Virus record (IMG/VR): IMGVR_UViG_3300024249_000001
Coordinates: 935 to 64,934 of that record
DNA length: 64,000 nucleotides
Strand: one strand, 5' to 3'
Source of the DNA: a virus
Lineage: Duplodnaviria; Caudoviricetes
The notes beneath the pieces are model-generated. The model was not told where the DNA came from. It was given only the letters and a program-made list of their open reading frames with translations, and did not search any database. This document shows positions 14,900 to 46,258 of this stretch, one piece after another (the first letter of the stretch is position 1; every line of letters begins with the position of its first letter). The translations under genes were made by a program, and so were the position numbers.

Positions 14900-15324
14900 T
14901 AGGGCCTAATGCGTACTTTAGCACTTCCCGGACTCGCGGCGAGGTTGACGGCGTGGTTCGAGATCGTCGCCTGGGGCGCGGCGAGCGTGACCGTCACGCA
15001 CGGGGAGTTCCCCGGGCAGGTAAAAGTGGACGGGAGAGAAATGGTCACCGTCGCGATCGTCCCGGGCCGGATGAACGAGGCGTTCATGCCCAGGAGGAGC
15101 ATCTTGCCCTGGTACGCGCTGGCGCTCTTGTCCGGCGGGAGCGCCCTCACGGCCATCCCGGTGGTGGGGGTGTTCACACTGATGGTCCACTGGTAGGTAG
15201 TCGCGCCGATGGTCGCGGTTGTGACCGAACACACGAGAGGCTTGGCGCTGGTGGACGGGCAGACGATGCCCACCTGGGACCAAACGGGAAGGGCTAAGGC
15301 TAGCAACGCGAGCAGGAGCTTCAT
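14899..15324 (-). CDS. secreted cohesin-like protein
   Basis: Signal peptide MKLLLALLALALPVWS-Q; YQWTI..., DKSA..., LLGMNASFIRPGTIATV resemble acidobacterial cohesin-type domains. Confidence 0.55.
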   Translation of the reverse strand: MKLLLALLALALPVWSQVGIVCPSTSAKPLVCSVTTATIGATTYQWTISVNTPTTGMAVRALPPDKSASAYQGKMLLLGMNASFIRPGTIATVTISLPSTFTCPGNSPCVTVTLAAPQATISNHAVNLAASPGSAKVRIRP

Positions 15325-18300
15325 GGCCCGATCACGCATCCCTGGCCCAGGCTCGCGTTCACGACCCGCTGGACATCCGTCGCGGAGCAGGACCCGGACT
15401 GAGTGATCGAGTTGGTGCACCCCACGATCCCCAGGGCCATGTTGGTCTGGAGCTGGATGTCCAGGACATTGGGCAGGACTGGCGGAACCGCGTGAGTCGC
15501 CGGCGCGCAGGTGGGCAGCGGCGGAGTCACTCCCGCAATGGTGATGCTAAACGGCGAAGGCCCCGCGACGCCGAACGTGTTCGTCGCGGTCACGTTGAAG
15601 CTGGTCGTCCCGGAGACGGATGGTGTGCCGGTGAGGATCCCGGTGATCCCCAGAGTGGCCCAGGACGGCAGACCAGTGCTAGTCCAATTAATCGGCGTCG
15701 TCCCAGTCGCGCGAAACGTGTAGGAGTACGGAGTCCCCACCGCGCCATTGGGCAGCGGGCTGACGCTAGTGATAATCGGGGCGAGGTTCGGATTCGCAAT
15801 GGTGAGTGTGAAGGTCCGGGGGCCATCGCTCCCAGTGCTATTGGTAGCGGTCACGGCGAAGGAACTGGACGCCGCGGTGGGAGGAGTTCCGGTCAACGCT
15901 CCCACTGAAGAGAGCGATGCCCAGCTTGGGAGCCCCGTAGCGCCCCAGGTAATCGGTGCTGTGCCCGTTGCCGTGAACTGATAGGAATAAGCCGTGCCCG
16001 CAGTTGCGCCCGGTAGCGGAGTGGTGCTGGTGATGGACGGTGCGACCCCCGTCACCGTGAGACTGAAGTCGTGCGGCCCGTCGCTCCCCGTGCCGTTCGT
16101 TGCGGTGACGTGGAGAGTGCTCACAGCGACGGCGTTCGGAGTTCCGGTGAGCATCCCGGCGCTCGAGAGCGATGCCCATCCCGGGAGTCCCGTTCCGCTC
16201 CAGGTGATCGGCGCAGAGCCTCCGGCGGCAAACTGGAACGAATACCCCGTGCCCAACGTGCCGTTCGGGAGTGGGCTAGTGGAGGTGATCGTGGGCGCGA
16301 CGGGAGGTGTGACGACCGTGAGACTGAAGTTATGCGGGCCATCGGTCCCCGCGACATTCGACGCTGTTACTGCCAGAATCGTCGTGGTGCTGACGTTCGG
16401 CGTCCCGGTCAGAAGGCCGCTAGCCGATAGGCTCGCCCATGCAGGGAGTCCCGTGGCGGACCATGTGACCGGGCTGGTGCCGGTCGCGGCAAATTGGAAT
16501 GAGTACGGAGTCCCATTTGTCCCGCCAGGCAGTGGACTCATGCTGGTGATCACTGGCGGGATTCCGGCGATCGTGAGGGAGAAGTTCGTCGGCCCAGCGC
16601 TCCCGGCGGAGTTCGTCGCGCGGACGGACATGGTGGTAGTGGCGACGGCGTTCGGCGTCCCGTTCAGCAAACCCGCAGAGGACAAGGTCGCCCAGCTAGG
16701 TAAGCCAGTTGCGCTCCAGGTGATCGTCCCGGAGCCAGTCGCGGCGAATGCAAACGAGTACGGAGTGCCGATGGTCCCAGACGGGAGCGGATTCGTGGTG
16801 GTGATCACCGGCGCGCTAGAGGCGAGGCGCCATCCCAGGGCGTTGTCGATCCCAGGCGCGCCAAACGCCTCCCCGTAGTTCTTGCCCAGAATGGTGATGT
16901 TATCGGCGCCGAGGTTCCCGAACAGACAAGGCGGAGTGTTGACCGGACTCGTTGTGTTGCAATTCGCCGCCGCTTCCCAGGTGTCCGTCACCAGGCCATC
17001 GCAGGCTGGACCGGAGCACGGCAAGGTCTTCAGGCCCTCGTTGGCCGCGCTGGTGAGGCCCGCGGTGGGACCGCCCAGCTGAGCCGCAAGGCACTCATTC
17101 GTCCAAGCCAGGTAGGTCGCATTGAATGTCTGCGCGTAGAGCCATGCGATCCCGCCGCAGACTGTACGGGTCAGGTTCCGGTCCCCGGTGCCGTTGTTGC
17201 AGTAGGTCGCCGAGGAATGGCAAGCAGCGGAGGCGCTCGGCGCATAAGCCACCGCGCTCCCGCTGAGGTTCCCAATCTCCCCGTAGAGCCCGTAAGGAAC
17301 CGTGAGCGTCGCGTGCGTGTTATCGGCGCAGGAGGAGAACTTGTAAATCGTCCGCGGGGTGTTCAAGCCGATGAATGGGTTCGAGGTGCACTGCGCTAGG
17401 AAATTCGTCCCGCTCCCGACAATGCTTGTCGAGCCATGAGTGATGGCCACGGTCCCGGCGCCGGGAGAGATGGTCAGCTGATCGTTGGACTGCGAGTTGA
17501 CCTCGTAGTAGATCCCCCGGTTCGAAGTGTCGCGGCCATAGTTGTTCTGCCAAGTTACGGCCTTGGTGATCACCGCTAGGGTCGCCGCAGCGAGCGACGG
17601 GTTGTTGCATCCTTGTGCTCCATTATCGTTCAGGGACTCGTAGGACGCTTCCATGGCTTTGACGTTGATCGCCTCGCGCCACGGCGCCCCAGGATAGAGA
17701 AACGGACTTGCGAACGCTTTGGGGGCCGCCACGAAAGTTGGATTTATCTCATACTCCGCCTCTGGCCACGATCCATCCGGAGCCTGAACGGAGTTCCAGA
17801 TCGACGTGTAGGTCGAGAGCCAGGAGCAATACTGGGCGTGCCGGGTCGGGTCGGTGTCTACTTTCGCACCGAGCGCGATGTCCCAGAGCACATATCCGGC
17901 TTCGCGATTGTCGATGGCTGGGCTTGCGGAAGGGTCGGCCCATCGCGGAATTTCGCTAGAGATCCAAGTGTAGAGTCCAGGAAGGCGCTCTGTGTGCCCC
18001 TCAGTCACGCGGAAGAACTGCGAGATCATCGCCGCCGCCCGGGGAGCGAGCTGCCTGCGGTATCCGTGGTCGAGCGTCCACTGCCACTGAATGTCAGCAT
18101 AGGCGCGGGCTTGCGTGAGATACGTCGCGTTCCCGGTGCGAATCCACAGCCGATAGAGCGCGATCGCCACGTCGTAATAGTTCCAGACCGTCGAAGGATT
18201 CTCCGTCGTCCAGCATTGGAAGTCGCAGCCGTAGCTATTGGGCGGTGGCATCAGGTAGCCTGTCATGCCGGATTGCGACGGCTGCTGAAAGTCTCCATCG

Positions 18301-19742
18301 GCACAAACTACAGTGGTCGATGTCACGTTGGAGATCGGGCACATGAAGCGGCCGGTTCCAGGGCCGTCTACAGTCGTCCATGCGATGGTGATCCAGGCAA
18401 CTCCGGCAAGTGGGACACGCTGGTCTACTGTGGTCGTGAAGAACTGATTCCCCTGCACCCAGGAGAACGTCCCCGCGAGCGGAGTGCCAAGAGCGGGAGC
18501 CGCCGCGAGAGCAATCGGAGCCATATTGTCAGCGGTGCCCTTCTCCGCTAGATCCCCGAAGGTCCAAGGGTTCGAGCCGTAGGGCGTGAGCGGTCCAAGC
18601 AGGTTATTTTGGATCGCGGAGAGGCCAGTGATGCAGATGCCGTTCGCGTCGGTCGTGCAGGGGTTTGTTGGCGCTGCTCCTGGATTTGCCGATCCTACCC
18701 ATGCCGGATTGGTAAGAGACGCATAGTATAGATTAGTTCCGTCCGTCGTGATCTCATTCAATGAAAGCTCTGAGGTTCCGAAGTAGAACACCGAGGTTGC
18801 TAGTGTCCCTGGAGTGATCCGGCCTAGAGCACTGCGTTGCGTGCTGGTGTTTACAAAAGTCGCCCAGACATAAGTGCCGTCGAAGATGCAACCGCCATCA
18901 GAGGACCATCCTGCGCCGAGCGTCGGCGTGAAGTCGATCAAGGTCTGGCTGGTGAGGTTCGTCCGGTCGATGCGAATGACATTCGCGCCGGTTGTGTTTG
19001 GCGAAGTGGACTCCGATTGGATGTAAATATACGTCCCGTCGAAAGCCATCTCCTGCGGAGAGACAAACGCGACCGTCAGGTCTTGGGAATCTTCGGCTGT
19101 GAAAGTAGCGGTGTCGATCCTGGAAATCTCAGTCGGTATCGTGGAGGTGGACGAGTATAGTTTCCCATGCGCTGCATCGTAGACCATCGCGTGCGGGTTG
19201 CTGCGATTGCCATACGTGATATTGGAGACCCGTGCATAATCGGACAGGCGGTAACGGATAAGCGCGGAGGAGTTCAGTGGAGAGTTCTGATTCTTCACGA
19301 CATACAAGTATGTTCCGTCCGAAACCATCGTCCCGATGCTCGCCACGTTCGCTGGAGGAACCGTGTCGGAAACAACGTCGGTTGATGTTAGTGTCGTTGG
19401 ATCTACTTCTCCGATGGTCACGTTGGTTTGCGTCAGGAACCCGCCGAACAGGACATAGAGCTTCCCCTTAGACGGCACATAAATCACCGTGGAGGGATGC
19501 TTGTGGTTCCCGTCATTGGGAAATGTGACGCTATTGGTGGTAGCTCCAGTGGTCGGATTGATCTGGAGAAGTTGCCCCGGATCGGTGAAGGTCACGACCC
19601 AATAGGAGCCTAACGCATAGGTGCCGCCCTCGATAAAGTTCTGCCCGGTCGAGAGCGTCTGGAACCAACGAGGCGTTATGGTCTGCCCGAACGCCAGCGA
19701 CGCGACGAGCGCTAGCAGACCTGCTTGGATGCCGGACTTCAT
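15321..19742 (-). CDS. large secreted multidomain protein (1473 aa): beta-propeller-like region, central domain, five He_PIG Ig repeats, C-terminal dockerin-like domain
   Basis: Signal peptide MKSGIQAGLLALVASLAFG-Q; repeated ITS..PLP.G...Y.F...ATG...ITWS.TGLP.WA.L...G.L.GTP; C-terminus NVLDIQLQTNMALG...DVQRVVNASLGQGC. Confidence 0.85.
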   Translation of the reverse strand: MKSGIQAGLLALVASLAFGQTITPRWFQTLSTGQNFIEGGTYALGSYWVVTFTDPGQLLQINPTTGATTNSVTFPNDGNHKHPSTVIYVPSKGKLYVLFGGFLTQTNVTIGEVDPTTLTSTDVVSDTVPPANVASIGTMVSDGTYLYVVKNQNSPLNSSALIRYRLSDYARVSNITYGNRSNPHAMVYDAAHGKLYSSTSTIPTEISRIDTATFTAEDSQDLTVAFVSPQEMAFDGTYIYIQSESTSPNTTGANVIRIDRTNLTSQTLIDFTPTLGAGWSSDGGCIFDGTYVWATFVNTSTQRSALGRITPGTLATSVFYFGTSELSLNEITTDGTNLYYASLTNPAWVGSANPGAAPTNPCTTDANGICITGLSAIQNNLLGPLTPYGSNPWTFGDLAEKGTADNMAPIALAAAPALGTPLAGTFSWVQGNQFFTTTVDQRVPLAGVAWITIAWTTVDGPGTGRFMCPISNVTSTTVVCADGDFQQPSQSGMTGYLMPPPNSYGCDFQCWTTENPSTVWNYYDVAIALYRLWIRTGNATYLTQARAYADIQWQWTLDHGYRRQLAPRAAAMISQFFRVTEGHTERLPGLYTWISSEIPRWADPSASPAIDNREAGYVLWDIALGAKVDTDPTRHAQYCSWLSTYTSIWNSVQAPDGSWPEAEYEINPTFVAAPKAFASPFLYPGAPWREAINVKAMEASYESLNDNGAQGCNNPSLAAATLAVITKAVTWQNNYGRDTSNRGIYYEVNSQSNDQLTISPGAGTVAITHGSTSIVGSGTNFLAQCTSNPFIGLNTPRTIYKFSSCADNTHATLTVPYGLYGEIGNLSGSAVAYAPSASAACHSSATYCNNGTGDRNLTRTVCGGIAWLYAQTFNATYLAWTNECLAAQLGGPTAGLTSAANEGLKTLPCSGPACDGLVTDTWEAAANCNTTSPVNTPPCLFGNLGADNITILGKNYGEAFGAPGIDNALGWRLASSAPVITTTNPLPSGTIGTPYSFAFAATGSGTITWSATGLPSWATLSSAGLLNGTPNAVATTTMSVRATNSAGSAGPTNFSLTIAGIPPVITSMSPLPGGTNGTPYSFQFAATGTSPVTWSATGLPAWASLSASGLLTGTPNVSTTTILAVTASNVAGTDGPHNFSLTVVTPPVAPTITSTSPLPNGTLGTGYSFQFAAGGSAPITWSGTGLPGWASLSSAGMLTGTPNAVAVSTLHVTATNGTGSDGPHDFSLTVTGVAPSITSTTPLPGATAGTAYSYQFTATGTAPITWGATGLPSWASLSSVGALTGTPPTAASSSFAVTATNSTGSDGPRTFTLTIANPNLAPIITSVSPLPNGAVGTPYSYTFRATGTTPINWTSTGLPSWATLGITGILTGTPSVSGTTSFNVTATNTFGVAGPSPFSITIAGVTPPLPTCAPATHAVPPVLPNVLDIQLQTNMALGIVGCTNSITQSGSCSATDVQRVVNASLGQGCVIGP
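15533..16812 (-). repeat. five tandem ~85-aa He_PIG (putative Ig) repeats
   Basis: Repeats visible in the translation; boundaries approximate. Confidence 0.85.
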
Positions 19743-20521
19743 TAGAAGATCGTTCCGTGCCCCGGCGTCAGGCTTCCGGTTGCAGCCGTTGACTTGAATG
19801 ACGCAATTCCGGCGACTGCCGTAACTGGAGTACCCATCGCCCATTGTGGGTTCGCCGCCGCCGCCGATGTTTGAATCAAATAAGCCAAGGACACACCCCA
19901 GCTATTGACTGTGTAATCCGTAGTCCCTCCGGTTGGGATTGTGAAACCGCCATTGATAGAAACCGTTGATCCCATGAAATATCCGAGTCCAGCTATCACG
20001 AGTTCATTATTCTGCCCAGGCGTAATACTCCCCGTTGTCAAAGTTGTAGTTGCTGCCCCATTATTCCCATTCTGCTGATCGAATGGACTAGATGCGACTC
20101 CAGCAAATGCAGCAACACTCAAAGCTGGATAAGTTGCTCCGCCAGAAAGCGTAAACGTGTGACTCGCGTTTGTCGTTGGAGCTTGTTTGTAATAGATCGT
20201 AAGCTGTGGCTGGGACGAGCCATTCCATACCGTGAGAGCGGTATAACTATTAGACTGATTGTCGCTAAAAGTCTGACTTCCGCCGCTGATCTTAATAGTC
20301 ACAGCCACAATAAGGTTAGCCCCAACGGTGCTAATCGCAGCCGTTGTTACGTTGGTGGTATCCGACGATCCAGCGCTCTTGTTATTTCCTATCGTGATCG
20401 CGGCTTTTAGTTCTGGGACAACGATAAGAGACGATGCGGCGGCGACCCACAGACCGCCGCGCTTGATAAACTTCCTTCTCGTATCGAGATCAAACGAATC
20501 AGGATTGTTCGCTAGTCGCAT
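19742..20521 (-). CDS. Tat-exported beta-sandwich protein
   Basis: TRRKFIK twin-arginine motif, then a hydrophobic stretch and ELKA-A; start set by an upstream small ORF. Confidence 0.7.
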   Translation of the reverse strand: MRLANNPDSFDLDTRRKFIKRGGLWVAAASSLIVVPELKAAITIGNNKSAGSSDTTNVTTAAISTVGANLIVAVTIKISGGSQTFSDNQSNSYTALTVWNGSSQPQLTIYYKQAPTTNASHTFTLSGGATYPALSVAAFAGVASSPFDQQNGNNGAATTTLTTGSITPGQNNELVIAGLGYFMGSTVSINGGFTIPTGGTTDYTVNSWGVSLAYLIQTSAAAANPQWAMGTPVTAVAGIASFKSTAATGSLTPGHGTIF

Positions 20522-36087: not shown

Positions 36088-37419
36088 GTGCCTTACGCTC
36101 AGATCACCCTCGCGAACTTCATCGCCCAGCTGGGGACTAATCTCGACGACACTGCTGGGCTCTATTGGACCGACGCCGAAAAAACGTTCGCGGTCCAAGA
36201 GGGCCTCCGCGTCTTCGGGGCCGTCACAAGCTACTGGCGCACGCGCGGGGGATTCTCAACCTCTCCCGCCGCGACGTATTACGATCTCAGCGTAGTCCTC
36301 CCGACCCTGCGCACCCGCACCTGGACCCTCCAGCAGCTTACCCAGGAGATCCAATTCACGCTGCTAGAGGCCGCGAATGGAATCTCCGGCGCGGGAATGA
36401 GCGGGCAGGTCCAGATCCAGAACATCCTCCAGGCCATCCAACGCGCCCGGAACCGATTCGTGCTCGACTCCCGGCTCCCATACTCGGCAATCGTCGCGCC
36501 CCCGGGCGTCCCCCCGCCCAACGGGCTAGTGCAGTTCGACCAGTCGGTGATTTATCTTCACCGCGCGGCTTGGCAAGACTTCGGCTCGGGCGGCACTCCC
36601 GGCGCCTGGACGAATCTATGGCGCGAGGACGCCTGGCAGGTCGATCACGGCTCCCCGCGCTGGACGATCGAGCCCGGAAGTCCCGTGCAGTACTCCGAAG
36701 CAGAGCTCGCTCCGCTCCAGGTGCAACTCTCCCCTGCGCCGACCAACTCCGGAGCGCTGGAGATCCTCGGAATCCTCTCCAAGACGCTCGATCTCACCGA
36801 TCCCAACGAGACCTTCGGCATCCCGGACGAGTGGATCCACGCGGTGAAGTACGCCGCGCTCGCCGATCTCTTTGGCCCGAACTCCCAGATCTACGATCCG
36901 CTCCGCGCCCAATACTGCGAGACCCGGTACACACAAGCGCTCGATTTCGCCAAGTCCGCCCGGAGTCTCCTGCGCGTAATGGTGAACGGGGTGCCGCTCG
37001 GGATCGACTCGCTCGCCGCGCTCGACGCGGGCCAGCCGTTCTGGCGGAATCAAAGCGCAATGCCGAATCTCGCCGGCGTGCTCTACGACATCCTGGCGTT
37101 CTCCAGTCAGGTTCCAGGGAGCGCGGGCGTCACTTGCGACGTGGTCCAGTCCGCGCCCATCCCGATCGCGTCCTCCGACTTCATCCCGCTCGGCGAGGAA
37201 GATCTGGGCCCGCTCACGGACTACTGCACCCACATCCTGACCATCAAGTGCGGCGGGAAGGAGTTGTCGAGCACTATGGGCGATTACGATAACTTCGCCC
37301 GAGCCTGCGCCCAGCGCCTCGGGATCACGAAGGCTAAGGTCCGGATGCTGGAGCCGCTCTTCGGCATGGCAGGACGGGAATGGCAAGCGCGCCCAGACCG
37401 GATGGAGGCCGCGCGCTAA
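36088..37419 (+). CDS. head-tail adaptor-like virion protein
   Basis: Two adaptor-like units (YWTDAE... and IPDEWIHAVKY). Confidence 0.55.
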   Translation: MPYAQITLANFIAQLGTNLDDTAGLYWTDAEKTFAVQEGLRVFGAVTSYWRTRGGFSTSPAATYYDLSVVLPTLRTRTWTLQQLTQEIQFTLLEAANGISGAGMSGQVQIQNILQAIQRARNRFVLDSRLPYSAIVAPPGVPPPNGLVQFDQSVIYLHRAAWQDFGSGGTPGAWTNLWREDAWQVDHGSPRWTIEPGSPVQYSEAELAPLQVQLSPAPTNSGALEILGILSKTLDLTDPNETFGIPDEWIHAVKYAALADLFGPNSQIYDPLRAQYCETRYTQALDFAKSARSLLRVMVNGVPLGIDSLAALDAGQPFWRNQSAMPNLAGVLYDILAFSSQVPGSAGVTCDVVQSAPIPIASSDFIPLGEEDLGPLTDYCTHILTIKCGGKELSSTMGDYDNFARACAQRLGITKAKVRMLEPLFGMAGREWQARPDRMEAAR

Positions 37420-37961: not shown

Positions 37962-38086
37962 CCCTCGGCGAATACATCCTGGAGCTAAAGGACGCCCTCG
38001 CCGCGCTCCAAGCGGAAGTCGAAGCGCTCAAAGCCCGCGTGCTCGAACTTGAATCCCGGCCACGCGCAAGGAGTGCTCGTGCCTGA
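37958..38086 (+). CDS. small coiled-coil protein
   Basis: Read manually; ATGA overlap. Confidence 0.45.
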   Translation: MTLGEYILELKDALAALQAEVEALKARVLELESRPRARSARA

Positions 38087-40694
38087 GATCATCCGCCTCC
38101 CCACACGCATGGACTGCGACGGCCTGGACGTCATGCACCCCGCCGACCGGATGCCGCCCAAGACCTTCCCCGTGCTCCAAAACGCGCGGGTGGTTGAGGA
38201 AGGGCGGCTGGAATCCCGCCCCGGATACACGCCCTACGACACCGGCACCCGCGTGCACTCCATGCGCAGGCTGAACGACCCGGCGGATCTGTTCAACACC
38301 GCCGGATACACGAACGTGGTTGGAGACGGGAATCTCCTGCGCGTCGGACCCCAGGGCGCTCTAGTCACGGTCGATCAAGACTACTCAGGGCACCCGCTCT
38401 CGCTGCTGACGTTCCGTCCGGACCAGTCCCCCGAGACCTGGATGTACGTGTACGACCAGAACAAACAGGCGAAGGTCAGGCCGGACGGGGTGGTACAACC
38501 CATCGGAGTCCCCCCGCCGGCGACCGGCCCGGTGGCCAACGCCACCTATGGCCCCCCGGCGAACGTCGACGCCTCGATCGGGCAGGCGACCGCCGGGTGG
38601 GCCCCGCAGGGCGGCGCCGGAGCCGTGACCCTGGGCGACCGTGCCTCGCAGATGTCCACCGGGACCGGACTCACGATCGGGACGATTCTTTACGACGTTG
38701 GCACCAATGGATGGTGCGTGATCGTCCCCGCCTCGGGCACTCCCGGGGATCTCGTGCCGGACCAAATGGGCAACCGGATGAAAGTGATCCTCCAGACCGG
38801 ACCCGAGACCGTGCTGGTCCGCGAGGTCCATGCTGATGTTGGAACGACCACGATCGCCGGAATCCAGTACGACCTGGGAAATAACGGCGTCTGCACCATC
38901 GTACTCGCCTCCCAGCCCACAGGCGGGAACCTCCAGGCCCTCACCCGGAACTCGGTCCTGAGGCTGGGAGGGGGCGAGTACGTCCGGGTGCTCTCCGTCA
39001 CGCTCTCCCCAGACGGCTCGACGTATTCGATCCGGTGCTCCACGCTAGCCACCCACTTCGCCGGGGACGCCGTCGCCGGGGCGCTCTCCTGGTACTGCTA
39101 CACCGTGGGCACGCACGCCGCAGGCGAGACCATTGCTTCGCATTACATCTATGCCGCAGTCGCCAGCGCCACTCCGGTCACCAGCTCGCTCCTGGCCGCC
39201 TCGCTCTCGCTCAACCTCGGCTCCGCATCCTCCCGCCCGATCGACCCGGCGAACGACTGGATGCATATCAGCTTTTACTGCGACGCCCCGCAGAACCTCG
39301 GATACCTGCTGCTACAAATCTACATCGGCACCGGCGCGGCGAACGACTACTACGGCTGGACCGTGACGGCGGACACGCTCTCCAGCGGCTGGAACGAGAT
39401 CCTCCTGCCGATCGCCAGCGCCGACCGGGTCGGCGCGCACACCGGGGATTCGCTCTCGAACTCCACCGGGCTCCAGGTGTTCGTCCAGTCCAACGGGCCG
39501 CTGACGTTTGGGTTCGACTGGTGGTATCTCTTTGGGACCTACGGGCCGACGGTCCAGCCCAATTCGCCGGTGGGACTCAGCTACGTCTCGACCAACCGGA
39601 ACTCAGGGACAGGCGCGGCTAGTGTCCCGAGTCCTCCCCTGCGGTTCCAGCTGTTCCCGCTGCGCGAGCAGGTGCTGGTCACACCCCAGCCGAACGCCCT
39701 CGCATACAACGGCGTGCCATACGTCGACAAGCTCGACATCTATCGCCTGGGCGGATCGATCACGAACTTCACTTATGTGGGAACCGTCGCAAACAATGCA
39801 CTCGCCCCGGCGACTTATGCAGACAACCTGCCCGATACCAGCATCGAGTCCTCTCCCCAAGCGGACTTCAGCCTGATCCAGCCCTGGCCGGTGCTAGTGC
39901 AACCACGCTCCGGGACCGTGAACGTGGTCGGCACCAAGGTGACTTGGAACTCCGGCGACTACTTCGACCTCACGCTGCTCTCGGCAAGCGTGATCCTGAT
40001 CAACGGCGTCGCCTTCCAGACCTACGGGCAGTCCCGGATCGGCACGGACCTGGAACTCTTCCTCAACGCGGGCGTGCAGACGAACGTGCCGTACCAGATC
40101 GCGAGCCCGACCCTCGCCGCCCAGCCGCTCCCGCTCGCCTTCGGACCTCTGGAGGGGCCGCTCGCCCCGGTCGCCTTCGCCTTGGGCGATCTCGTCAACG
40201 CCGGGACGCTCTACTATTCCAATATCTCGAACCTGGACGCCGCCTCGGACCAGAACACGGTGGAAATCGCCCCGCCGGGCGAGCCGCTGATCTCGGGAGC
40301 AGTGTGGAACGGCTACGTAATTGTGGGCAGCCGAGAGAACCTCTATATCGCGCGCTACAGCTATCTCCAGACCCTCGGAGTCCCCGGCCAGACAACGTTC
40401 CAGTTCAATCGGCTGCCCTCGCCCTCCGGCGGGATGTGGTCCCGCTGGTCGGTGTGCGCCGGTGCGGACGGAGTCTACTTCCTCGGCCGCGACGGGATCT
40501 ACCGCGCAACTGAGCAGGGCGCGGTGTCGATCACCGATCACCGGTTGTATCCGCTGTTCCCGCACGACGGGGAACCCGCCCGGACGAGCTATGGTCTGCT
40601 CCCGGTCAACATGTCCAACCTCCCAGCCCTGCGCCTCTCCGCCGCCGACGAGGACGTGTACTTCGACTATTCGACCGCGTCCGGAGCCTCGTAG
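38079..40694 (+). CDS. tail hub/stabilisation protein (P22 gp10-like), N-terminal and main part
   Basis: GTG start with AAGGAG; LQNARV..G.LESRPG, beta-propeller repeats, DGVYFLGRDGIY; ends abruptly at YFDYSTASGAS. Confidence 0.65.
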   Translation: MPEIIRLPTRMDCDGLDVMHPADRMPPKTFPVLQNARVVEEGRLESRPGYTPYDTGTRVHSMRRLNDPADLFNTAGYTNVVGDGNLLRVGPQGALVTVDQDYSGHPLSLLTFRPDQSPETWMYVYDQNKQAKVRPDGVVQPIGVPPPATGPVANATYGPPANVDASIGQATAGWAPQGGAGAVTLGDRASQMSTGTGLTIGTILYDVGTNGWCVIVPASGTPGDLVPDQMGNRMKVILQTGPETVLVREVHADVGTTTIAGIQYDLGNNGVCTIVLASQPTGGNLQALTRNSVLRLGGGEYVRVLSVTLSPDGSTYSIRCSTLATHFAGDAVAGALSWYCYTVGTHAAGETIASHYIYAAVASATPVTSSLLAASLSLNLGSASSRPIDPANDWMHISFYCDAPQNLGYLLLQIYIGTGAANDYYGWTVTADTLSSGWNEILLPIASADRVGAHTGDSLSNSTGLQVFVQSNGPLTFGFDWWYLFGTYGPTVQPNSPVGLSYVSTNRNSGTGAASVPSPPLRFQLFPLREQVLVTPQPNALAYNGVPYVDKLDIYRLGGSITNFTYVGTVANNALAPATYADNLPDTSIESSPQADFSLIQPWPVLVQPRSGTVNVVGTKVTWNSGDYFDLTLLSASVILINGVAFQTYGQSRIGTDLELFLNAGVQTNVPYQIASPTLAAQPLPLAFGPLEGPLAPVAFALGDLVNAGTLYYSNISNLDAASDQNTVEIAPPGEPLISGAVWNGYVIVGSRENLYIARYSYLQTLGVPGQTTFQFNRLPSPSGGMWSRWSVCAGADGVYFLGRDGIYRATEQGAVSITDHRLYPLFPHDGEPARTSYGLLPVNMSNLPALRLSAADEDVYFDYSTASGAS

Positions 40695-40700
40695 GGTCCC

Positions 40701-41951
40701 ATGCCGATCGTCACCCTCGCGCCGATCCTGGCCGATCCGGCGGATTTCTCCCGCCAGTCCGGGACCGAGATCAACCCGTTTATCTTTCTCAAGGGCTCCC
40801 TGATCTATCAGGTCCTGGTCGACAGTAACACCGGCGGACTCGCGGTGTTCAAGGCCACCGCCGCCGGCGTGAACTCCCTGGCGCTCGACGCCGCGAATGC
40901 CCCGCAGATCCGCAGCGGAGGTGCGCTGGTCTGCTATTCCGACCCGGCCTCCGCGATCATTTCCATCGCCTACCGCGAGACCGCCAGCTTCAACCTCGCG
41001 ATTGTAGATTTTGACACCGCGACCGATACTTATGGAACTCCGATCGTCTCGACGCTGAACAGCGGCACGGCATTTGCGGCCGGGGCCGGGCTGTTCCATC
41101 GCACCAGCAACGGACTCTACTACATCATCTACCCCGTCGCAGGACAGCTTTCCTACCGGACCATCGACGGCGGCGGGACCACCTCTGCCGCCGTGGCCAT
41201 GACCCCCGCCGTGAGCGCCGGACAGGGGATGTTCTACACGAAATTCGACGAGTCCACCGGGATCGCCTTCTTCTTTTATCTCGTGAGCATCGCCGGGGGA
41301 CACTTCAACTGCATCACGCTCTCGGCTGCGGATGTCGTCGGAACGCTGGTAAACATCGACACCGATGGCGTCGAATGGGTAGAGGCGGTCATTCAGAGCG
41401 GCACACTCAGCGTCGCCTGGATCAACAACGACGGGAGCAAGGTAAAGACCTCCTCTGCGACCGTTGCCACGGCCCCAACTTTCGCGGCCTCCACCACCCT
41501 CGCCACATTAACGCCGCCCGAAGTAGCCACCTATATTTCGATTACCTTCATCGGCGCGACGCTCACGGTCCTCTGGTGCCTGACGGATCTCTCATTCGAT
41601 CCGGGAGTGGACGAGATTGACTATTCCCAGTTCATCGCGAGCGCCTGGACCGCCCCTGCGGTGTTTTACGACGAACTCACCAATCCTCCCGCGGGCGGCT
41701 TGGCTTATCCCAATCAATTCGTCCACACCCTCCAGGTCTTGGGCACCGCGGGCGGCGGCTGGTTCGCCTTCACTGCGATGGAGACGGAAGCGGCTTGTAC
41801 CGGGTTCATCCTGGTCGCCCCCGGCGCGGCCCCCCCGGTGCCCACGCTCCTCTGCCCGATTGTCTCGACCGCGATGATCGGCGTGCCATTCTCGACCATG
41901 CTGCTTGCGAGCGGCGGCACTCCGCCCTACACGTTCGCGATTCTCAGCTAA
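40701..41951 (+). CDS. beta-propeller-like protein ending in the N-half of a He_PIG domain
   Basis: In frame with the upstream gene (TAG GGT CCC ATG); C-terminus GVPFSTMLLASGGTPPYTFAILS*. Confidence 0.7.
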   Translation: MPIVTLAPILADPADFSRQSGTEINPFIFLKGSLIYQVLVDSNTGGLAVFKATAAGVNSLALDAANAPQIRSGGALVCYSDPASAIISIAYRETASFNLAIVDFDTATDTYGTPIVSTLNSGTAFAAGAGLFHRTSNGLYYIIYPVAGQLSYRTIDGGGTTSAAVAMTPAVSAGQGMFYTKFDESTGIAFFFYLVSIAGGHFNCITLSAADVVGTLVNIDTDGVEWVEAVIQSGTLSVAWINNDGSKVKTSSATVATAPTFAASTTLATLTPPEVATYISITFIGATLTVLWCLTDLSFDPGVDEIDYSQFIASAWTAPAVFYDELTNPPAGGLAYPNQFVHTLQVLGTAGGGWFAFTAMETEAACTGFILVAPGAAPPVPTLLCPIVSTAMIGVPFSTMLLASGGTPPYTFAILS

Positions 41952-41954
41952 GAC

Positions 41955-42461
41955 ATGATCACGCTCACTCTAGCATCCGGCTCAGGGATCGAAGGCGGGA
42001 CGCTCCCGCTCACGCTCACGATTGCCAGCACGAGCGGCGATGCCTGTACATCGGTGCAATTCACCCTCTCCTACAATCCCGCCGATCTCACCCTCACCAG
42101 TGCCGTCGCGGGTGCGTCCGCCACCGGCGCTTCGAAGATGGTGAACCGCGCCGGGAACCTGATCGTGATCTGGGGCCTCAACACGAATGTGATCGCCGAC
42201 GGGACGCTCTGCACCCTGAACTTCTTGGTCTCTAACCCAGTCACGCACGGCTCGATTCCGATCACGCTCACATCCATCGTCGCCTCCGACGCGAGCGCCA
42301 ATCCGCTCTCGACCACCGGGGTCGCCGGGACGGTCACCGTGAATATCGTCACCATTGCATGCCCCGTCGGCGGGGGGAGCGCGTCCAAGGGCCAGAATTA
42401 TTCCGCGCAGCTACTAGCGTCCGGCGGCACTGGTCCGTATACTTTCACTATCACTGGATGA
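41955..42461 (+). CDS. cytoplasmic cohesin-like domain plus the N-half of a He_PIG domain
   Basis: VQFTLSYNPADL...AGASA..ASK...WGLNTNVIADGTL; C-terminus YSAQLLASGGTGPYTFTITG*. Confidence 0.7.
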   Translation: MITLTLASGSGIEGGTLPLTLTIASTSGDACTSVQFTLSYNPADLTLTSAVAGASATGASKMVNRAGNLIVIWGLNTNVIADGTLCTLNFLVSNPVTHGSIPITLTSIVASDASANPLSTTGVAGTVTVNIVTIACPVGGGSASKGQNYSAQLLASGGTGPYTFTITG

Positions 42462-42465
42462 GCTA

Positions 42466-43473
42466 ATGCCATTACCACCTGGGCTGACACTCGACCCCAC
42501 CACCGGAGTGATCTCCGGCGTCCCCACCACCTCCGGGACCTTCGTCTACACCGCCCAGGTCACGGACTCGCTCGGGCAAACGGCAACGGTCACCTGCCAG
42601 ATCGTCGTCCCGGCGCTCCCCCCGCCGGTGGTCCAGGCGTCGAACACCCTCCGCTGGCAGATCGAATCGGTGAACCGCCCAGGGCGGTGGTTCCGCCACG
42701 TCTACGCCGACCCAGTAGTGGCGCACTATCTGAACGAGCCATCCGCTTCGGACCCGAATGAACAACAACTGCTCCTGCTCGGCGCCCCGATCTGGCTCGC
42801 CGGCGGCAACTCCGACAACCACGTCCCGATCGACACGGTGATCCTGGTGCCATCCGCCGACGGCGGCGACGAGCGCGCCCAGAAGCTCTACCCGGACGCC
42901 ATGCTCCAGCTGGACGGCGATGGACTGGTCCAAGTGACTCCCACCTTCCAGTCCGCGCAGGTCAACGCGCCCACCACGCAGGTGATCGCTGCGAACGGAA
43001 TCCAGCAGGCACTGGTGAACATCGCCTCGCTGGCTAATCTCGCCCTGTACCGCAACATCGGAGTGGTCCTGGAGTGGACCGGCGGCCCGGACGGCCCGAG
43101 GATCTACGCCTGGGAGCCCGCCTGGTACCTCCAGCCGTACCTGTCGACATTCTTGGTCACGCAATTTTTGAATCTCTCGTATCCGGGTTGGAAAAGTTTT
43201 CGTAGAATGTATCCCGCGCTCATTTCAACTGCTCCCGTTACGTTTACAATCAAATGCCAAGACGGGCGCACCTTTACTTATGAGATTCCGAGCACCAATG
43301 GGCAATTATTCTTGCTTCCAATGATCGTGAATCATGGGGTCAAGGATTTGGCGTTTGCGCTACAGTTAGACGGCCACGGAACGCCCTTCGCATTATTTCC
43401 AGACGAGTTCGTTCTCGAAGCAAAAGGCTGGAAGGACCCGGAATACTTGCAATTGGCAGTATTCAAGACTTGA
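42466..43473 (+). CDS. C-half of a He_PIG domain plus the C-terminal part of the tail hub protein
   Basis: Begins LPPGLTLDPTTGVISGVPTTSGTF.YTAQVTDS; continues NTL...RWF..VY. Confidence 0.7.
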   Translation: MPLPPGLTLDPTTGVISGVPTTSGTFVYTAQVTDSLGQTATVTCQIVVPALPPPVVQASNTLRWQIESVNRPGRWFRHVYADPVVAHYLNEPSASDPNEQQLLLLGAPIWLAGGNSDNHVPIDTVILVPSADGGDERAQKLYPDAMLQLDGDGLVQVTPTFQSAQVNAPTTQVIAANGIQQALVNIASLANLALYRNIGVVLEWTGGPDGPRIYAWEPAWYLQPYLSTFLVTQFLNLSYPGWKSFRRMYPALISTAPVTFTIKCQDGRTFTYEIPSTNGQLFLLPMIVNHGVKDLAFALQLDGHGTPFALFPDEFVLEAKGWKDPEYLQLAVFKT

Positions 43474-44050
43474 TCCAGATCTTGTTCTTCACGATCTGAA
43501 GTATCAGCGAATTCGATACACCAAAACGTTTTCCAAGCGCGACTGAACTATTTCGGTGCCGATCGTGCGGTTTATATAAACTGCGAATGAGATCGACTTC
43601 AGCCCATGTTAGTTTGGCACTGACATTAGCTTCGCCGCGTTTAAGCTGCTCGGGCTTCTGCCGCGTCCAGTGCGCATCCCCGCGTATCAAACGCTGTGGA
43701 TAAAGACGCGCGCCATTCTCATCCCCAGTCGCACGGTTCGCTCGCCCTTTCTGCACGGCATCCATCGCGTTCTCACGCTGTGAACCTAAAAATAAATGTA
43801 ATCCGTTTAAGCATGGCGGATTGTCGCAGGTATGCAAAACATTTTTCGCCCCCGGATCAATCCCGGTTTGCAGAAAATATCCAATCCGATGCGACAGAAA
43901 TCCACAGTATTGCCCATAGCCGTCATTGTCGACTGATCCGGTCCAAGACCAACACGCATCCGGTTCAAGCCCGCAGAGCACTTTCGACCAAAAGCCTTCA
44001 AGTTGCTGCGGCGTGAAATTCGGAATCGGTCTATTATGTAGGGTAGCCAT
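43463..44050 (-). mobile_element. free-standing HNH homing endonuclease
   Basis: CWSWTG...GYG...HRI...VLHTCDNPPCLNGLHLFLG...N. Confidence 0.88.
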
Positions 44051-44140: not shown

Positions 44141-46258
44141 ATGAATCGAACACTTCTCTTCGCAGTCCTGACGCTGCTTTCATGCGTCCCCGGTTTTGCA
44201 ATGGAGCGCGCGCAGGGCCAATGCGTCCAAGGCGGCAAGGTGATCGTCGCGCCCGCGAGCGTGGGCGGCTCGCCCCAAACGCGCGGGTTCGTCCAGTCAT
44301 ACAAATTCTGTACCGTGACGGTTTATCTGAGCGGCACGGTCACTAAGCCCTCCAATATCTACTCGACCAACACCGGGACGGTCCTCGCGAACCCGTTCAC
44401 CGCTGACCAGTTCGGGCAGTGGTTCTTCTACGCCGCGAACGGCCGCTACGACATCCAGATCGCCGGCGGCGGTCCGCCTGCGCTCGCCGCCCCCTACACC
44501 TTCGGAGACATCCAGCTCTTCGACAACCCCACGCTCACGGACTTCGGCGGGTCTTGCGACGGCTCGACGGACAACACCGCCGCGCTCACCGCGGCCATCG
44601 CAGCCGCCCCGACCCTGCTCGTGATCCCCACCGGCACCTGCGTGTTCGCCTCGAGCATCGCCGTCCCAGCGACCATGGCCCTCGCGATCCAGGGGATCAT
44701 CGCCCCTGCTTCCACCAGGGTCTTCACGATTAATGGCGGGGTGCTCGCCGCATCAACCCAGCGGATCTTCTCCGGCGCGGGATCGATCGTCTTTGGCCCG
44801 GGCGCGGTCACTCAGGTCTATCCGGAATGGTGGGGCGCCGCGGCGGACGGCACCACTGCTTGCTCTCCGGCAATTGCAGCTGCTTACGCAGCGCTCCCCG
44901 CAAACGGCGGCCGCATCGCCTTCGCCGCCGGGACCTACTCGCTCGACGCAGCGCTCTCTTTTGCCACATCTGGAAAGCCCGTGACGCTCCAGGGCAACGC
45001 CGGATCGGCGACCAACTTCACCTTCGTCCCAGTAACCGGAACCGCGCTGCTGTTCAACTACGGCACCGGCCTCAAGATGGGCCACGGGATGCGAGACATT
45101 ACGCTCACCGGCCCGGGCTCAAGCACCAGCACCATCGGCGTGCTCTTCGGCGGGAGCCAGGGCGCCCAGGGCTTCGTGTGCGAGAACTGCAAGGTCCAGG
45201 GCTTCGGCGTGGGCGCCCAACTCGGCGCTAATACCTGGATCACGGCGTTCAACGGCGGGATGCTCCGGTCGAACGGCACGAACCTCCTCCTCCCGTTCGG
45301 CCTGACGCAAGCCGGAGAGAACCTCCAGTTCAACCATGTGACGTTCGCGGACGCGCCGAGTCCCTTCACCAACTCCGTGTGGGTCCAGGGCGGGGGGCAG
45401 GAGGTGATCTTCACCGACTGCTCCTTCGACCAGGCGCAGGTCCGAGTCGGAGACGCCGGGACCGCAGCGGCCCAGGTGGTCATCAAAGGATCGCACTTCG
45501 AGAATCCCAACGGCGGCACGAACTACCCGTTCCTGGTCGTCGACAACAACGCCGGGAATTATCTTCGCCTGACGGATTCCTACATGCTGAACGACACGGC
45601 GGTCGCGGGCCCCTCCAGCTTCATGACCCTCCAGGGCGGGAAGGTGTTCATCAGCGGCCTGGGAATGTTCACCCCCGCCGGCTCCCCGCTCACCAACCTC
45701 GCCGTGCTCTCCAACGCGGTCAACGTGGAGCTCTACGGCTTCAACGATCTCTCCGGGAACATCTCCGGCGCGCTCCTCGGCGGCACCACCACCGGCTACG
45801 TTGTGAACTTCGCTGGCGCGAACACCGGATCGAGCACGCCACAAAATTTCGTCTTGAAGGCCGCAGATGCCGTGGGGGGCGCGCGGCTCGACGTCACCGG
45901 GAACATCCGCTCCAGCGCCCAGCTGGTGAGTCTCCAGGCAACCGGCACCGCCCCGCTCTCAGTGAACTCCACCACTCCCGTGGCGAACCTCTTCACGAAC
46001 CCGCTCACCTTCTCCGCGGCCGGAACGCAATCGACCACGACCACCCATCTCGTCTATGGGAGCGCCGCGCTATCCGGCGGCACCGTCACCATCACGCTCC
46101 TGGGATCCGCGATCTACACCAACTCCTCCTCCTACCAGTGCAACGCGAATGATCTCAGCGCGCTCCAGCCCGTGCGGGTGAATCTCGTCTCAGGGAGCAG
46201 CTTCATCCTCCTCGGCACCGGGACGGACAACGTGAACTATGTATGCCTCGGCAATTGA
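44141..46258 (+). CDS. tailspike/depolymerase with a virion-attachment-like N-domain and an N-terminal signal peptide
   Basis: MNRTLLFAVLTLLSCVPGFA; LANPFTADQFG...FYAANGRYDI; CDGSTDNT and ADGTTACS pectate-lyase-fold starts. Confidence 0.8.
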   Translation: MNRTLLFAVLTLLSCVPGFAMERAQGQCVQGGKVIVAPASVGGSPQTRGFVQSYKFCTVTVYLSGTVTKPSNIYSTNTGTVLANPFTADQFGQWFFYAANGRYDIQIAGGGPPALAAPYTFGDIQLFDNPTLTDFGGSCDGSTDNTAALTAAIAAAPTLLVIPTGTCVFASSIAVPATMALAIQGIIAPASTRVFTINGGVLAASTQRIFSGAGSIVFGPGAVTQVYPEWWGAAADGTTACSPAIAAAYAALPANGGRIAFAAGTYSLDAALSFATSGKPVTLQGNAGSATNFTFVPVTGTALLFNYGTGLKMGHGMRDITLTGPGSSTSTIGVLFGGSQGAQGFVCENCKVQGFGVGAQLGANTWITAFNGGMLRSNGTNLLLPFGLTQAGENLQFNHVTFADAPSPFTNSVWVQGGGQEVIFTDCSFDQAQVRVGDAGTAAAQVVIKGSHFENPNGGTNYPFLVVDNNAGNYLRLTDSYMLNDTAVAGPSSFMTLQGGKVFISGLGMFTPAGSPLTNLAVLSNAVNVELYGFNDLSGNISGALLGGTTTGYVVNFAGANTGSSTPQNFVLKAADAVGGARLDVTGNIRSSAQLVSLQATGTAPLSVNSTTPVANLFTNPLTFSAAGTQSTTTTHLVYGSAALSGGTVTITLLGSAIYTNSSSYQCNANDLSALQPVRVNLVSGSSFILLGTGTDNVNYVCLGN

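Follow-up and report, generated by a model that had tools for sequence, protein, structure and literature searches.

We describe four tail genes in a 64,000-nucleotide (nt) window of DNA from an uncultured soil podophage (IMG/VR record IMGVR_UViG_3300024249_000001, positions 935 to 64,934), in which a putative immunoglobulin (Ig) domain of the He_PIG family is divided among three proteins. The four open reading frames (ORFs), referred to here as g1 to g4, lie head to tail on the plus strand (Table 1). g1 and the C-terminal part of g4 are two pieces of one podophage nozzle, from a tail like those of SU10 and P22, that is about 1140 amino acids (aa) long when unsplit, and g2 and g3 with the He_PIG pieces constitute a cassette inserted into the nozzle gene. 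Both g2 and g3 consist of a head followed by the first half of the Ig domain (the N-half), and g4 starts with the second (the C-half). An earlier note on this DNA, made without database searches, had listed the ORFs with their stops and spacers, the +1 offset of g4 and a g4 frame open from 42418, and our reading of the ORFs and junctions reproduces all of these. The g1 stop is TAG, and a 6-nt spacer separates it from the ATG of g2, which is in frame; the g4 frame is open upstream to 42418, 48 nt before its ATG, with no earlier start codon.

Table 1. Coordinates of the four genes, their parts and junctions (window positions; HMM, hidden Markov model; AF2, AlphaFold2).
Feature	Position	Strand	Details or basis
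g1	38049-40694	+	881 aa from first TTG; homology begins near residue 11
g1, N-terminal nozzle/tail-hub fragment	38049..40694	+	nozzle profile 1-865
g2	40701-41951	+	416 aa
g2 head, beta-propeller (residues 1 to about 383)	40701..41849	+	AF2 and Foldseek
g2 tail, He_PIG N-half and stop TAA	41850..41951	+	family HMM positions 2-34
g2/g3 junction	41949..41957	+	TAA, 3 nt, ATG in frame
g3	41955-42461	+	168 aa
g3 head, cohesin-like beta-sandwich (residues 1 to about 134)	41955..42356	+	Pfam Cohesin
g3 tail, He_PIG N-half and stop TGA	42357..42461	+	family HMM, positions about 2-34; predicted g4 interface
g3/g4 junction	42459..42468	+	TGA, 4 nt, ATG in frame +1
g4	42466-43473	+	335 aa
g4 N-terminus, He_PIG C-half	42466..42609	+	positions 35-83; Pfam and family HMM
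Proline-rich linker	42610..42633	+	from translation; between He_PIG match and nozzle-profile match
g4 C-part, C-terminal nozzle fragment (residues 57-335)	42634..43473	+	nozzle profile 866-1143

The He_PIG domain and its division among separate genes

The Pfam profile He_PIG (PF05345, putative Ig domain) has 96 positions and a cut-off of 24 bits; residues 3-48 of g4 match its positions 48-95 with 38 bits, above the cut-off. When g3 and g4 are read together in the +1 frame, the match widens to positions 8-95 of 96 and 42.3 bits. A family-specific model of 83 positions was also derived from the 394 intact copies that the fetched relatives contain. On this model, residues 384-416 of g2 occupy positions 2-34 (E-value 2e-8), residues 141-167 of g3 positions 7-33 (7e-7), and residues 3-48 of g4 positions 37-82 (8e-18). 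With g3 ending at position 33/34 and g4 starting at 35, these limits place the ends of g2 and g3 and the start of g4 at one loop, with neither gap nor overlap. No single chain of this locus in the window holds the complete domain, positions 1-34 being present on g2 and again on g3, and 35-83 on g4. The earlier claim that g2 and g3 stop at the same mid-point of a He_PIG domain and that g4 opens with the missing half is thus borne out, with ends at 34 and 34 and a start at 35. The family model detected no further orphan half in the window. Its only other He_PIG copies are five intact tandem repeats (approximately residues 1035-1455, counted in the stop-to-stop frame) in a 1507-aa ORF on the minus strand, 15321-19844, that is unrelated to g1-g4.

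Among all fetched proteins and ORFs, C-terminal ends that fall inside a He_PIG domain lie at position 33/34 in 19 distinct sequences and at 69-71 in 10, and starts inside the domain lie at position 35 in five distinct sequences, all other positions being singletons. This clustering at 33/34, 69-71 and 35 is far beyond chance. The g2-like proteins that stop at the same point as g2 fall into at least eight clusters at 50% identity. Six g3-type proteins, 53-100% identical, all have 167-168 aa and the same end residue.

The half-domains are the best-conserved parts of their proteins. Comparison of g2 with its counterpart in one relative, L001 (relatives are cited by L or P numbers), shows 32% identity in the head (10-40% in blocks of 30 columns) and 92% in the N-half; similarly, the half-Ig of g4 is 75-90% conserved relative to L019 and L020, against about 25% identity in the rest of the protein. 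Ratios of nonsynonymous to synonymous substitution rates (dN/dS, Nei-Gojobori) are 0.11-0.24 for the g2 N-half, 0.15-0.33 for the g3 N-half and 0.04-0.24 for the g4 C-half, in comparisons where dS ranges from 0.4 to saturation. All three half-domains are thus under purifying selection.

Contigs from other soil-metagenome runs (Logan) are available for the junctions. Contig X2 is letter-identical to the window over 41882-42561 and contig X3 over 42441-42862, with no indels in either, so the indel or stop error for which the earlier note had proposed to inspect the g3/g4 junction is absent. The contigs of runs X2 to X4 leave some stretches of the region uncovered, which carries no meaning. The same note had proposed a comparison of split positions in related phages, and this finds the same mid-domain nick in nine assemblies. 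Recurrence of the nick in nine independent assemblies and purifying selection on the halves speak against both an error and a recent pseudogene. Nothing except its odd look favours a sequencing or assembly error or a recent loss of function, and the independent contigs that match across the junctions, together with a layout kept at 53-83% protein identity across other assemblies, leave such an explanation with a negligible chance of being right. Genome-wide reassignment of a stop codon was considered and dropped, because no stop interrupts the long ORFs and the stop differs at each of the three junctions (TAG, TAA and TGA). A split intein or fractured gene was likewise rejected; no intein (Hint) family is found by Pfam in g2, g3 or g4, and g3 is a cohesin.

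The earlier note had offered read-through combined with frameshifting as an alternative, by which g3 and g4 (and g2 and g3) would be fused into a covalent, intact Ig domain. Two of the window junctions are indeed in frame, the 48 nt before the g4 ATG are open in the +1 frame, and the +1 reading yields a nearly full He_PIG match. However, these relations are not kept among relatives: in five loci the g3/g4 spacer is 4, 4, 1, 0 or 2 nt, with frame offsets of 1, 1, 1, 0 and 2, and g2 and g3 share a 4-nt start/stop overlap (ATGA or GTGA) in eight of nine loci, to which the window with its 3-nt in-frame spacer is the exception. The C-half is preceded by ATG in every locus, and the final codon and spacer letters are not conserved. 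Frame offsets of 0, 1 and 2 with an invariable ATG exclude a conserved frameshift or read-through, and no fixed frame relation or conserved recoding signal was found. The three stops in the window all differ, moreover, and a fusion of g2 with g3 would put the cohesin inside the half-domain, which is structurally senseless. Recoding was rejected on the variable frame relations and conserved starts, and we hold it to be very improbable. The four genes are instead separate, tightly coupled cistrons with a signature of translational coupling.

The split nozzle gene and layouts in relatives

The nozzle profile, built from seven unsplit relatives, has 1143 positions, and the part matched by g1 is followed directly by that matched by g4, with no gap or overlap. 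No single-polypeptide nozzle is present in the window, the profile being split at 865/866. The designation of g4 in the earlier note as the C-terminal protein of the tail hub holds in this form, its C-terminal part being the nozzle C-fragment. Eight of 12 related IMG/VR loci have an unsplit nozzle ORF of 1137-1163 aa, in which the sequence of the g1 C-terminal end runs straight into that of the g4 C-terminal part. PHROGs contains no family for g1, g2 or g3, and comparison of the g1 and g4 families with solved structures by sequence gave nothing useful, only weak matches to designed Pizza propellers. With Foldseek, the AF2 model of an unsplit relative matches nozzle and tail chains of cyanophage A4, SU10, Pa223, Pan3, crAss001, Pam1, P22 (gp10), Sf6 and VP1 with probability 1.0 and E-values of 2e-13 to 2e-6 (single matches: 9k09_U, 2e-13; SU10 7z4b_DW, 4e-12; P22 8eap_D, 2e-6). 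The template modelling (TM) scores of these matches are low (0.15-0.39), as expected for a large multi-domain model. The break at 865/866 falls in a hairpin loop between two beta-meander strands of the same model. Gene order follows the adaptor-then-nozzle pattern; 36088-37416, the gene before the neighbour of g1, matches SU10_adaptor with 26.1 bits, just below the cut-off of 27, and the same family is recorded for the gene that precedes g1 in L004.

In two further relatives the nozzle is broken without inserted genes, at profile position 675/696 in L006 (245-3706) and at 808/808, with overlapping ORFs, in L016 (4372-7828). These breaks may be natural splits as well, or else errors of assembly.

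The trio of proteins seen in the window (propeller with N-half, cohesin with N-half, C-half with anchor) is also present in L001, L019, L020 and L032, and the g4 proteins of L001 and the window are 83% identical. In L019 and L032 the three-part cassette lies at another site of a distant nozzle gene, near profile position 1015 instead of 865, which is also a hairpin loop in the AF2 model; the cassette has therefore either moved or been captured twice. These two relatives have a nozzle piece of 1054-1057 aa and a protein of 297-303 aa. A second layout comprises two proteins (L022, L033, L034 and L035): the N-half closes a propeller protein, and the protein after it consists of a cohesin followed directly by the C-half and a short tail. 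The C-half here comes after a folded domain, its own chain has no N-half, and the only N-half nearby is that of the preceding protein. A third layout is found in L003, L004 and L007, where the propeller protein runs as far as model position 69 and lacks the last strand only; in all three, an additional, orphan last strand is present in the next protein, shortly before the nozzle C-fragment. The scores of these strand segments are 10.4-14.3 bits, and the 99.9th percentile of background windows is 7.5. For L007, an orphan strand first picked by eye, with a proline-rich stretch on either side, was given up for a much better-scoring segment directly after the intact domain. In the nicked layouts other than the trio, each incomplete domain thus has exactly one missing piece, in the neighbouring protein.

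Intact single-chain He_PIG domains also occur in relatives (L002, L008, L025, L028 and L036). Heads are joined to the nozzle C-fragment through a whole He_PIG domain in L008, L002, P0071 and P0073. L036 and L028 have a whole nozzle and an intact He_PIG, and their two head proteins end in the same C-terminal anchor peptide; the heads of L036 are a cohesin and a propeller 68% identical to g2. Pairs of heads on one type of anchor are thus a recurring design in this group.

These mosaics raise the question of whether the half-domains might be non-functional scars, left when the cassette was inserted by homologous recombination in He_PIG-coding DNA, with the heads attaching by other surfaces. The mosaic boundaries at He_PIG, of which the abrupt change in identity between the g2 head and its N-half is an example, the occupation of two nozzle sites and the many architectures with swapped heads among relatives are all compatible with this. 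Scars would not be expected to show dN/dS well under 1 at saturated synonymous sites, however, nor to share the same stop residue in at least nine lineages with a complementary start at 35. The internal C-half of the two-protein layout is on a chain that lacks an N-half, the missing piece of each nicked domain sits in the next protein, and the complex predicted below passes its controls. We regard leftover scars as decidedly improbable.

The heads, a predicted complex and a proposed fastening

The head of g2 is predicted with high confidence as a beta-propeller (AF2 predicted local distance difference test score, pLDDT, 90; predicted TM score, pTM, 0.86), with best Foldseek matches to the seven-bladed Photorhabdus lectins PHL/PLL (E-value 1e-10, TM-score 0.65) and also to sialidases. 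When g2 is folded alone, the half-Ig in its last ~35 residues has a pLDDT of 57-66. The g2 family is large, with 188 relatives at an E-value of at most 1e-3. Within the propeller head, a second contig variant of 40838-41135 in runs X1 and X2 differs at 28 of 298 nt with the rest identical, and is co-existing microdiversity within the presumed receptor-binding head.

Residues 3-129 of g3 match Pfam Cohesin (PF00963) with 38.8 bits (cut-off 24.1). Five homologues of g3 were found, of 167-168 aa, and an IMG/VR scan with the g3 family returned no locus. For longer fused forms (cohesin, intact He_PIG and nozzle in one chain) there were two weak matches to large repetitive proteins, which is weak evidence of absence. 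No paired dockerin-type calcium-loop repeats were seen in a loose pattern scan of the six frames of the window, and no profile search was done for them.

Complex prediction was carried out with residues 1-56 of g4 and g3 as its partner, using our own alignments and three controls. The pair has an ipSAE interface score of 0.69 (0.71, 0.69 and 0.69 in separate runs), compared with 0.01 for the best control. Of 80 solved complexes 58 reach this mark, as do 2 of 110 mismatched pairs, counts that are only a rough guide here because of our own alignments. Agreement between the runs is at least 97% of contacts, and the pLDDT of the partner is at least 90; that of the g4 C-half is 87 with g3 and 46-52 beside unrelated partners. 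The predicted strand contacts pair g4 28-34 with g3 162-165, g4 14-19 with g3 149-153, and g4 40-44 with g3 134-136. Such pairings correspond to a rebuilt Ig sandwich, and the prediction supports binding of g3 to g4.

Taken as a whole, the best explanation, and one that we consider probable, is a plug-and-socket fastening of two receptor-binding heads to a split nozzle. The cassette of two heads and nicked He_PIG sits at the break of the nozzle gene, in a hairpin loop, and g1 and g4 would co-fold into the nozzle ring through beta-sheet complementation. The N-terminus of g4 would project from the break on its proline linker, with its four Ig strands acting as a socket, and the three-strand half-Ig tail of a head protein would be the plug, completing the Ig domain in trans and fastening the head non-covalently. 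Of the two pairings, that of g3 with g4 is the one predicted, and we infer that of g2 with g4. With two plugs but one socket per nozzle subunit, the copies in the ring are probably shared between lectin-like g2 and cohesin-like g3 heads. We suggest more tentatively that the half-Ig socket on each nozzle subunit receives interchangeable plug-bearing heads, so that a virion may have mixed or exchangeable heads, and that the sister version donates a single strand. Fragment complementation had been put forward in the earlier note, and that core of it is now the best-supported reading (nick in nine assemblies, selection, predicted g3-g4 complex), although the note missed the split nozzle and the cassette.

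Several points weigh against the plug-and-socket fastening. Completion of the domain in trans is well supported, albeit by comparative and in silico evidence throughout. The complex prediction took in g3 as the plug and not g2, and its pass may come from likeness, a memory of intact Ig folds, because the two chains are halves of an often-solved domain. The AF2 nozzle model is of moderate quality (pLDDT 67, pTM 0.43). The family HMM detects no second C-half within the window, and the 2:1 ratio of N-halves to C-half is unexplained. Homologous recombination, moreover, has its best substrate in He_PIG-coding DNA, so that part of the conservation and the mosaic boundaries could reflect exchange of cassettes and not function.

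The same ratio is the starting point for a different account, in which one N-half is the lasting partner of the socket: the small g3 protein might cap the socket or the g2 plug during assembly and then be displaced, in the manner of chaperone-to-subunit donor-strand exchange, or g2 might dock elsewhere. The N-half of g2 is more conserved than that of g3 (proportion of differing nonsynonymous sites, pN, 0.09-0.16 vs 0.20-0.29), N-halves of the g2 and g3 types each retain an ending of their own that is conserved across lineages, and in the two-protein layout the g2 equivalent is the only source of an N-half. Yet the g3 N-half is itself under purifying selection, with a length invariant in six lineages, and the cohesin in the two-protein layout is covalently within the tail-bound protein. 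L036 and L028, moreover, have two heads on one type of anchor with no chaperone logic. A handover of this kind seems unlikely to us, and shared use of the socket by both heads is the reading that we prefer.

Relation to known systems and neighbouring genes

The one published case of a split nozzle is that of the Pseudomonas podophage A1002 (PLoS Biol, November 2026; PMC13730344). Its nozzle is encoded by two genes, gp39 (nozzle-rope) and gp42 (nozzle-base), that flank two fibre genes, and strand complementation between the two products restores the canonical platform and beta-propeller (PMC13730344). The fibre dimers bind the long rope by sheet augmentation, an attachment that is non-covalent and made through beta-sheet contacts (PMC13730344). 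This case shows that nozzle complementation of such a kind works in a real virion. The window resembles A1002 in that two nozzle-piece genes flank the appendage genes, in the order g1, g2, g3, g4, a likeness in gene layout between a solved case and a predicted one. It differs from A1002 in the position of the break, in the inserted proteins (propeller lectin-like and cohesin-like), and in having an Ig domain nicked mid-domain with its halves on different proteins.

Completion of an Ig fold in trans is itself familiar from chaperone-usher pili, where an incomplete fold is completed by a strand from another chain in a very stable, non-covalent manner, and where donors can compete. Pilins lack the last strand only and receive one donor strand. 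The half-Ig of the window would similarly be completed by the strands of another polypeptide, but with the nick at 34/35 three of about seven strands are donated and not the last alone, and assembly would be cytoplasmic; there is no sequence relationship. L003, L004 and L007, with the nick after position 69, are closer analogues of donor-strand complementation. No chaperone or usher was noticed among the annotated neighbours, although no dedicated search was made.

Other parallels concern the genes. In Aeromonas phage Aeh1, insertion of a mobile ORF split NrdA into two cistrons whose products reassemble into a working protein, and the nozzle gene of the window is likewise broken into two cistrons by an insertion, but the inserts are structural tail modules and not a homing endonuclease. 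Modular phage receptor-binding proteins have a conserved anchor and a variable distal head, which the locus recalls in the contrast between its conserved anchor and divergent heads and in the swapping of heads between lineages; here, however, the anchor is C-terminal and half a domain, the other half being on the tail hub. Programmed frameshifts or read-through are known in tail and capsid genes, as in lambda G/GT and T7 10A/10B. These share with the window adjacent ORFs whose joined reading gives a continuous domain, but neither a conserved frame relation nor a slippery site or signal is present in the window and its relatives, and their starts are conserved.

The literature on donor-strand complementation in phage fibres, He_PIG in phages and strand complementation in receptor-binding proteins was searched for a phage tail joint built from a nicked Ig domain, or for a second half served by two alternative first halves, and neither was found described. 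The split nozzle (one case) and Ig completion in trans (pili) are already known. If the proposed fastening is correct, it would be a naturally evolved two-chain Ig domain serving as a viral structural joint, in many uncultured soil podophages and with at least two nick positions, and a second, different case beside the published split nozzle. It would account for the attachment of accessory receptor-binding heads to a nozzle with a gene that was split to take them and, if the heads are interchangeable as tentatively suggested above, would offer a non-covalent route to breadth of host range and to rapid swapping of heads between phages. The module of 34 and 49 residues is a candidate non-covalent tag pair, or a handle for swapping heads in laboratory strains. 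For annotation, a truncated He_PIG match at the end of a protein encoded in a phage tail locus should not be taken for an error or a pseudogene.

Several neighbouring genes deserve mention. A free-standing HNH homing-endonuclease gene on the minus strand (43463-44050; PHROG 1872, E-value 8e-22, and a weak match to Pfam HNH_3) sits between g4 and a tailspike-like gene, and 11 nt at its 3' end overlap g4 on the opposite strand. In L001 the tailspike homologue comes directly after g4 with no HNH gene, so the HNH gene of the window is an extra insertion, and it lies outside the nozzle break. An HNH gene also adjoins the nozzle gene in L036.

Small ORFs between the nozzle piece and the propeller-head gene are present in L032 (4777-5013), L036 (2990-3214) and L001 (8025-8168) and absent from the window. 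Those of L032 and L036 have recorded matches to RRM_1 (RNA-recognition motif), unexpected in a tail module, and that of L001 is an unrelated 47-aa ORF. The tailspike-like gene of the window (44141-46258, plus strand) encodes a 705-aa protein with a pectate-lyase-like N-terminal part and a PHROG tail fibre match at its C-terminal end. The product has an apparent hydrophobic leader of the signal or lipoprotein type, which is odd for a virion protein; similar leaders are seen in its L001 homologue and in small post-nozzle proteins of L003 and L004.

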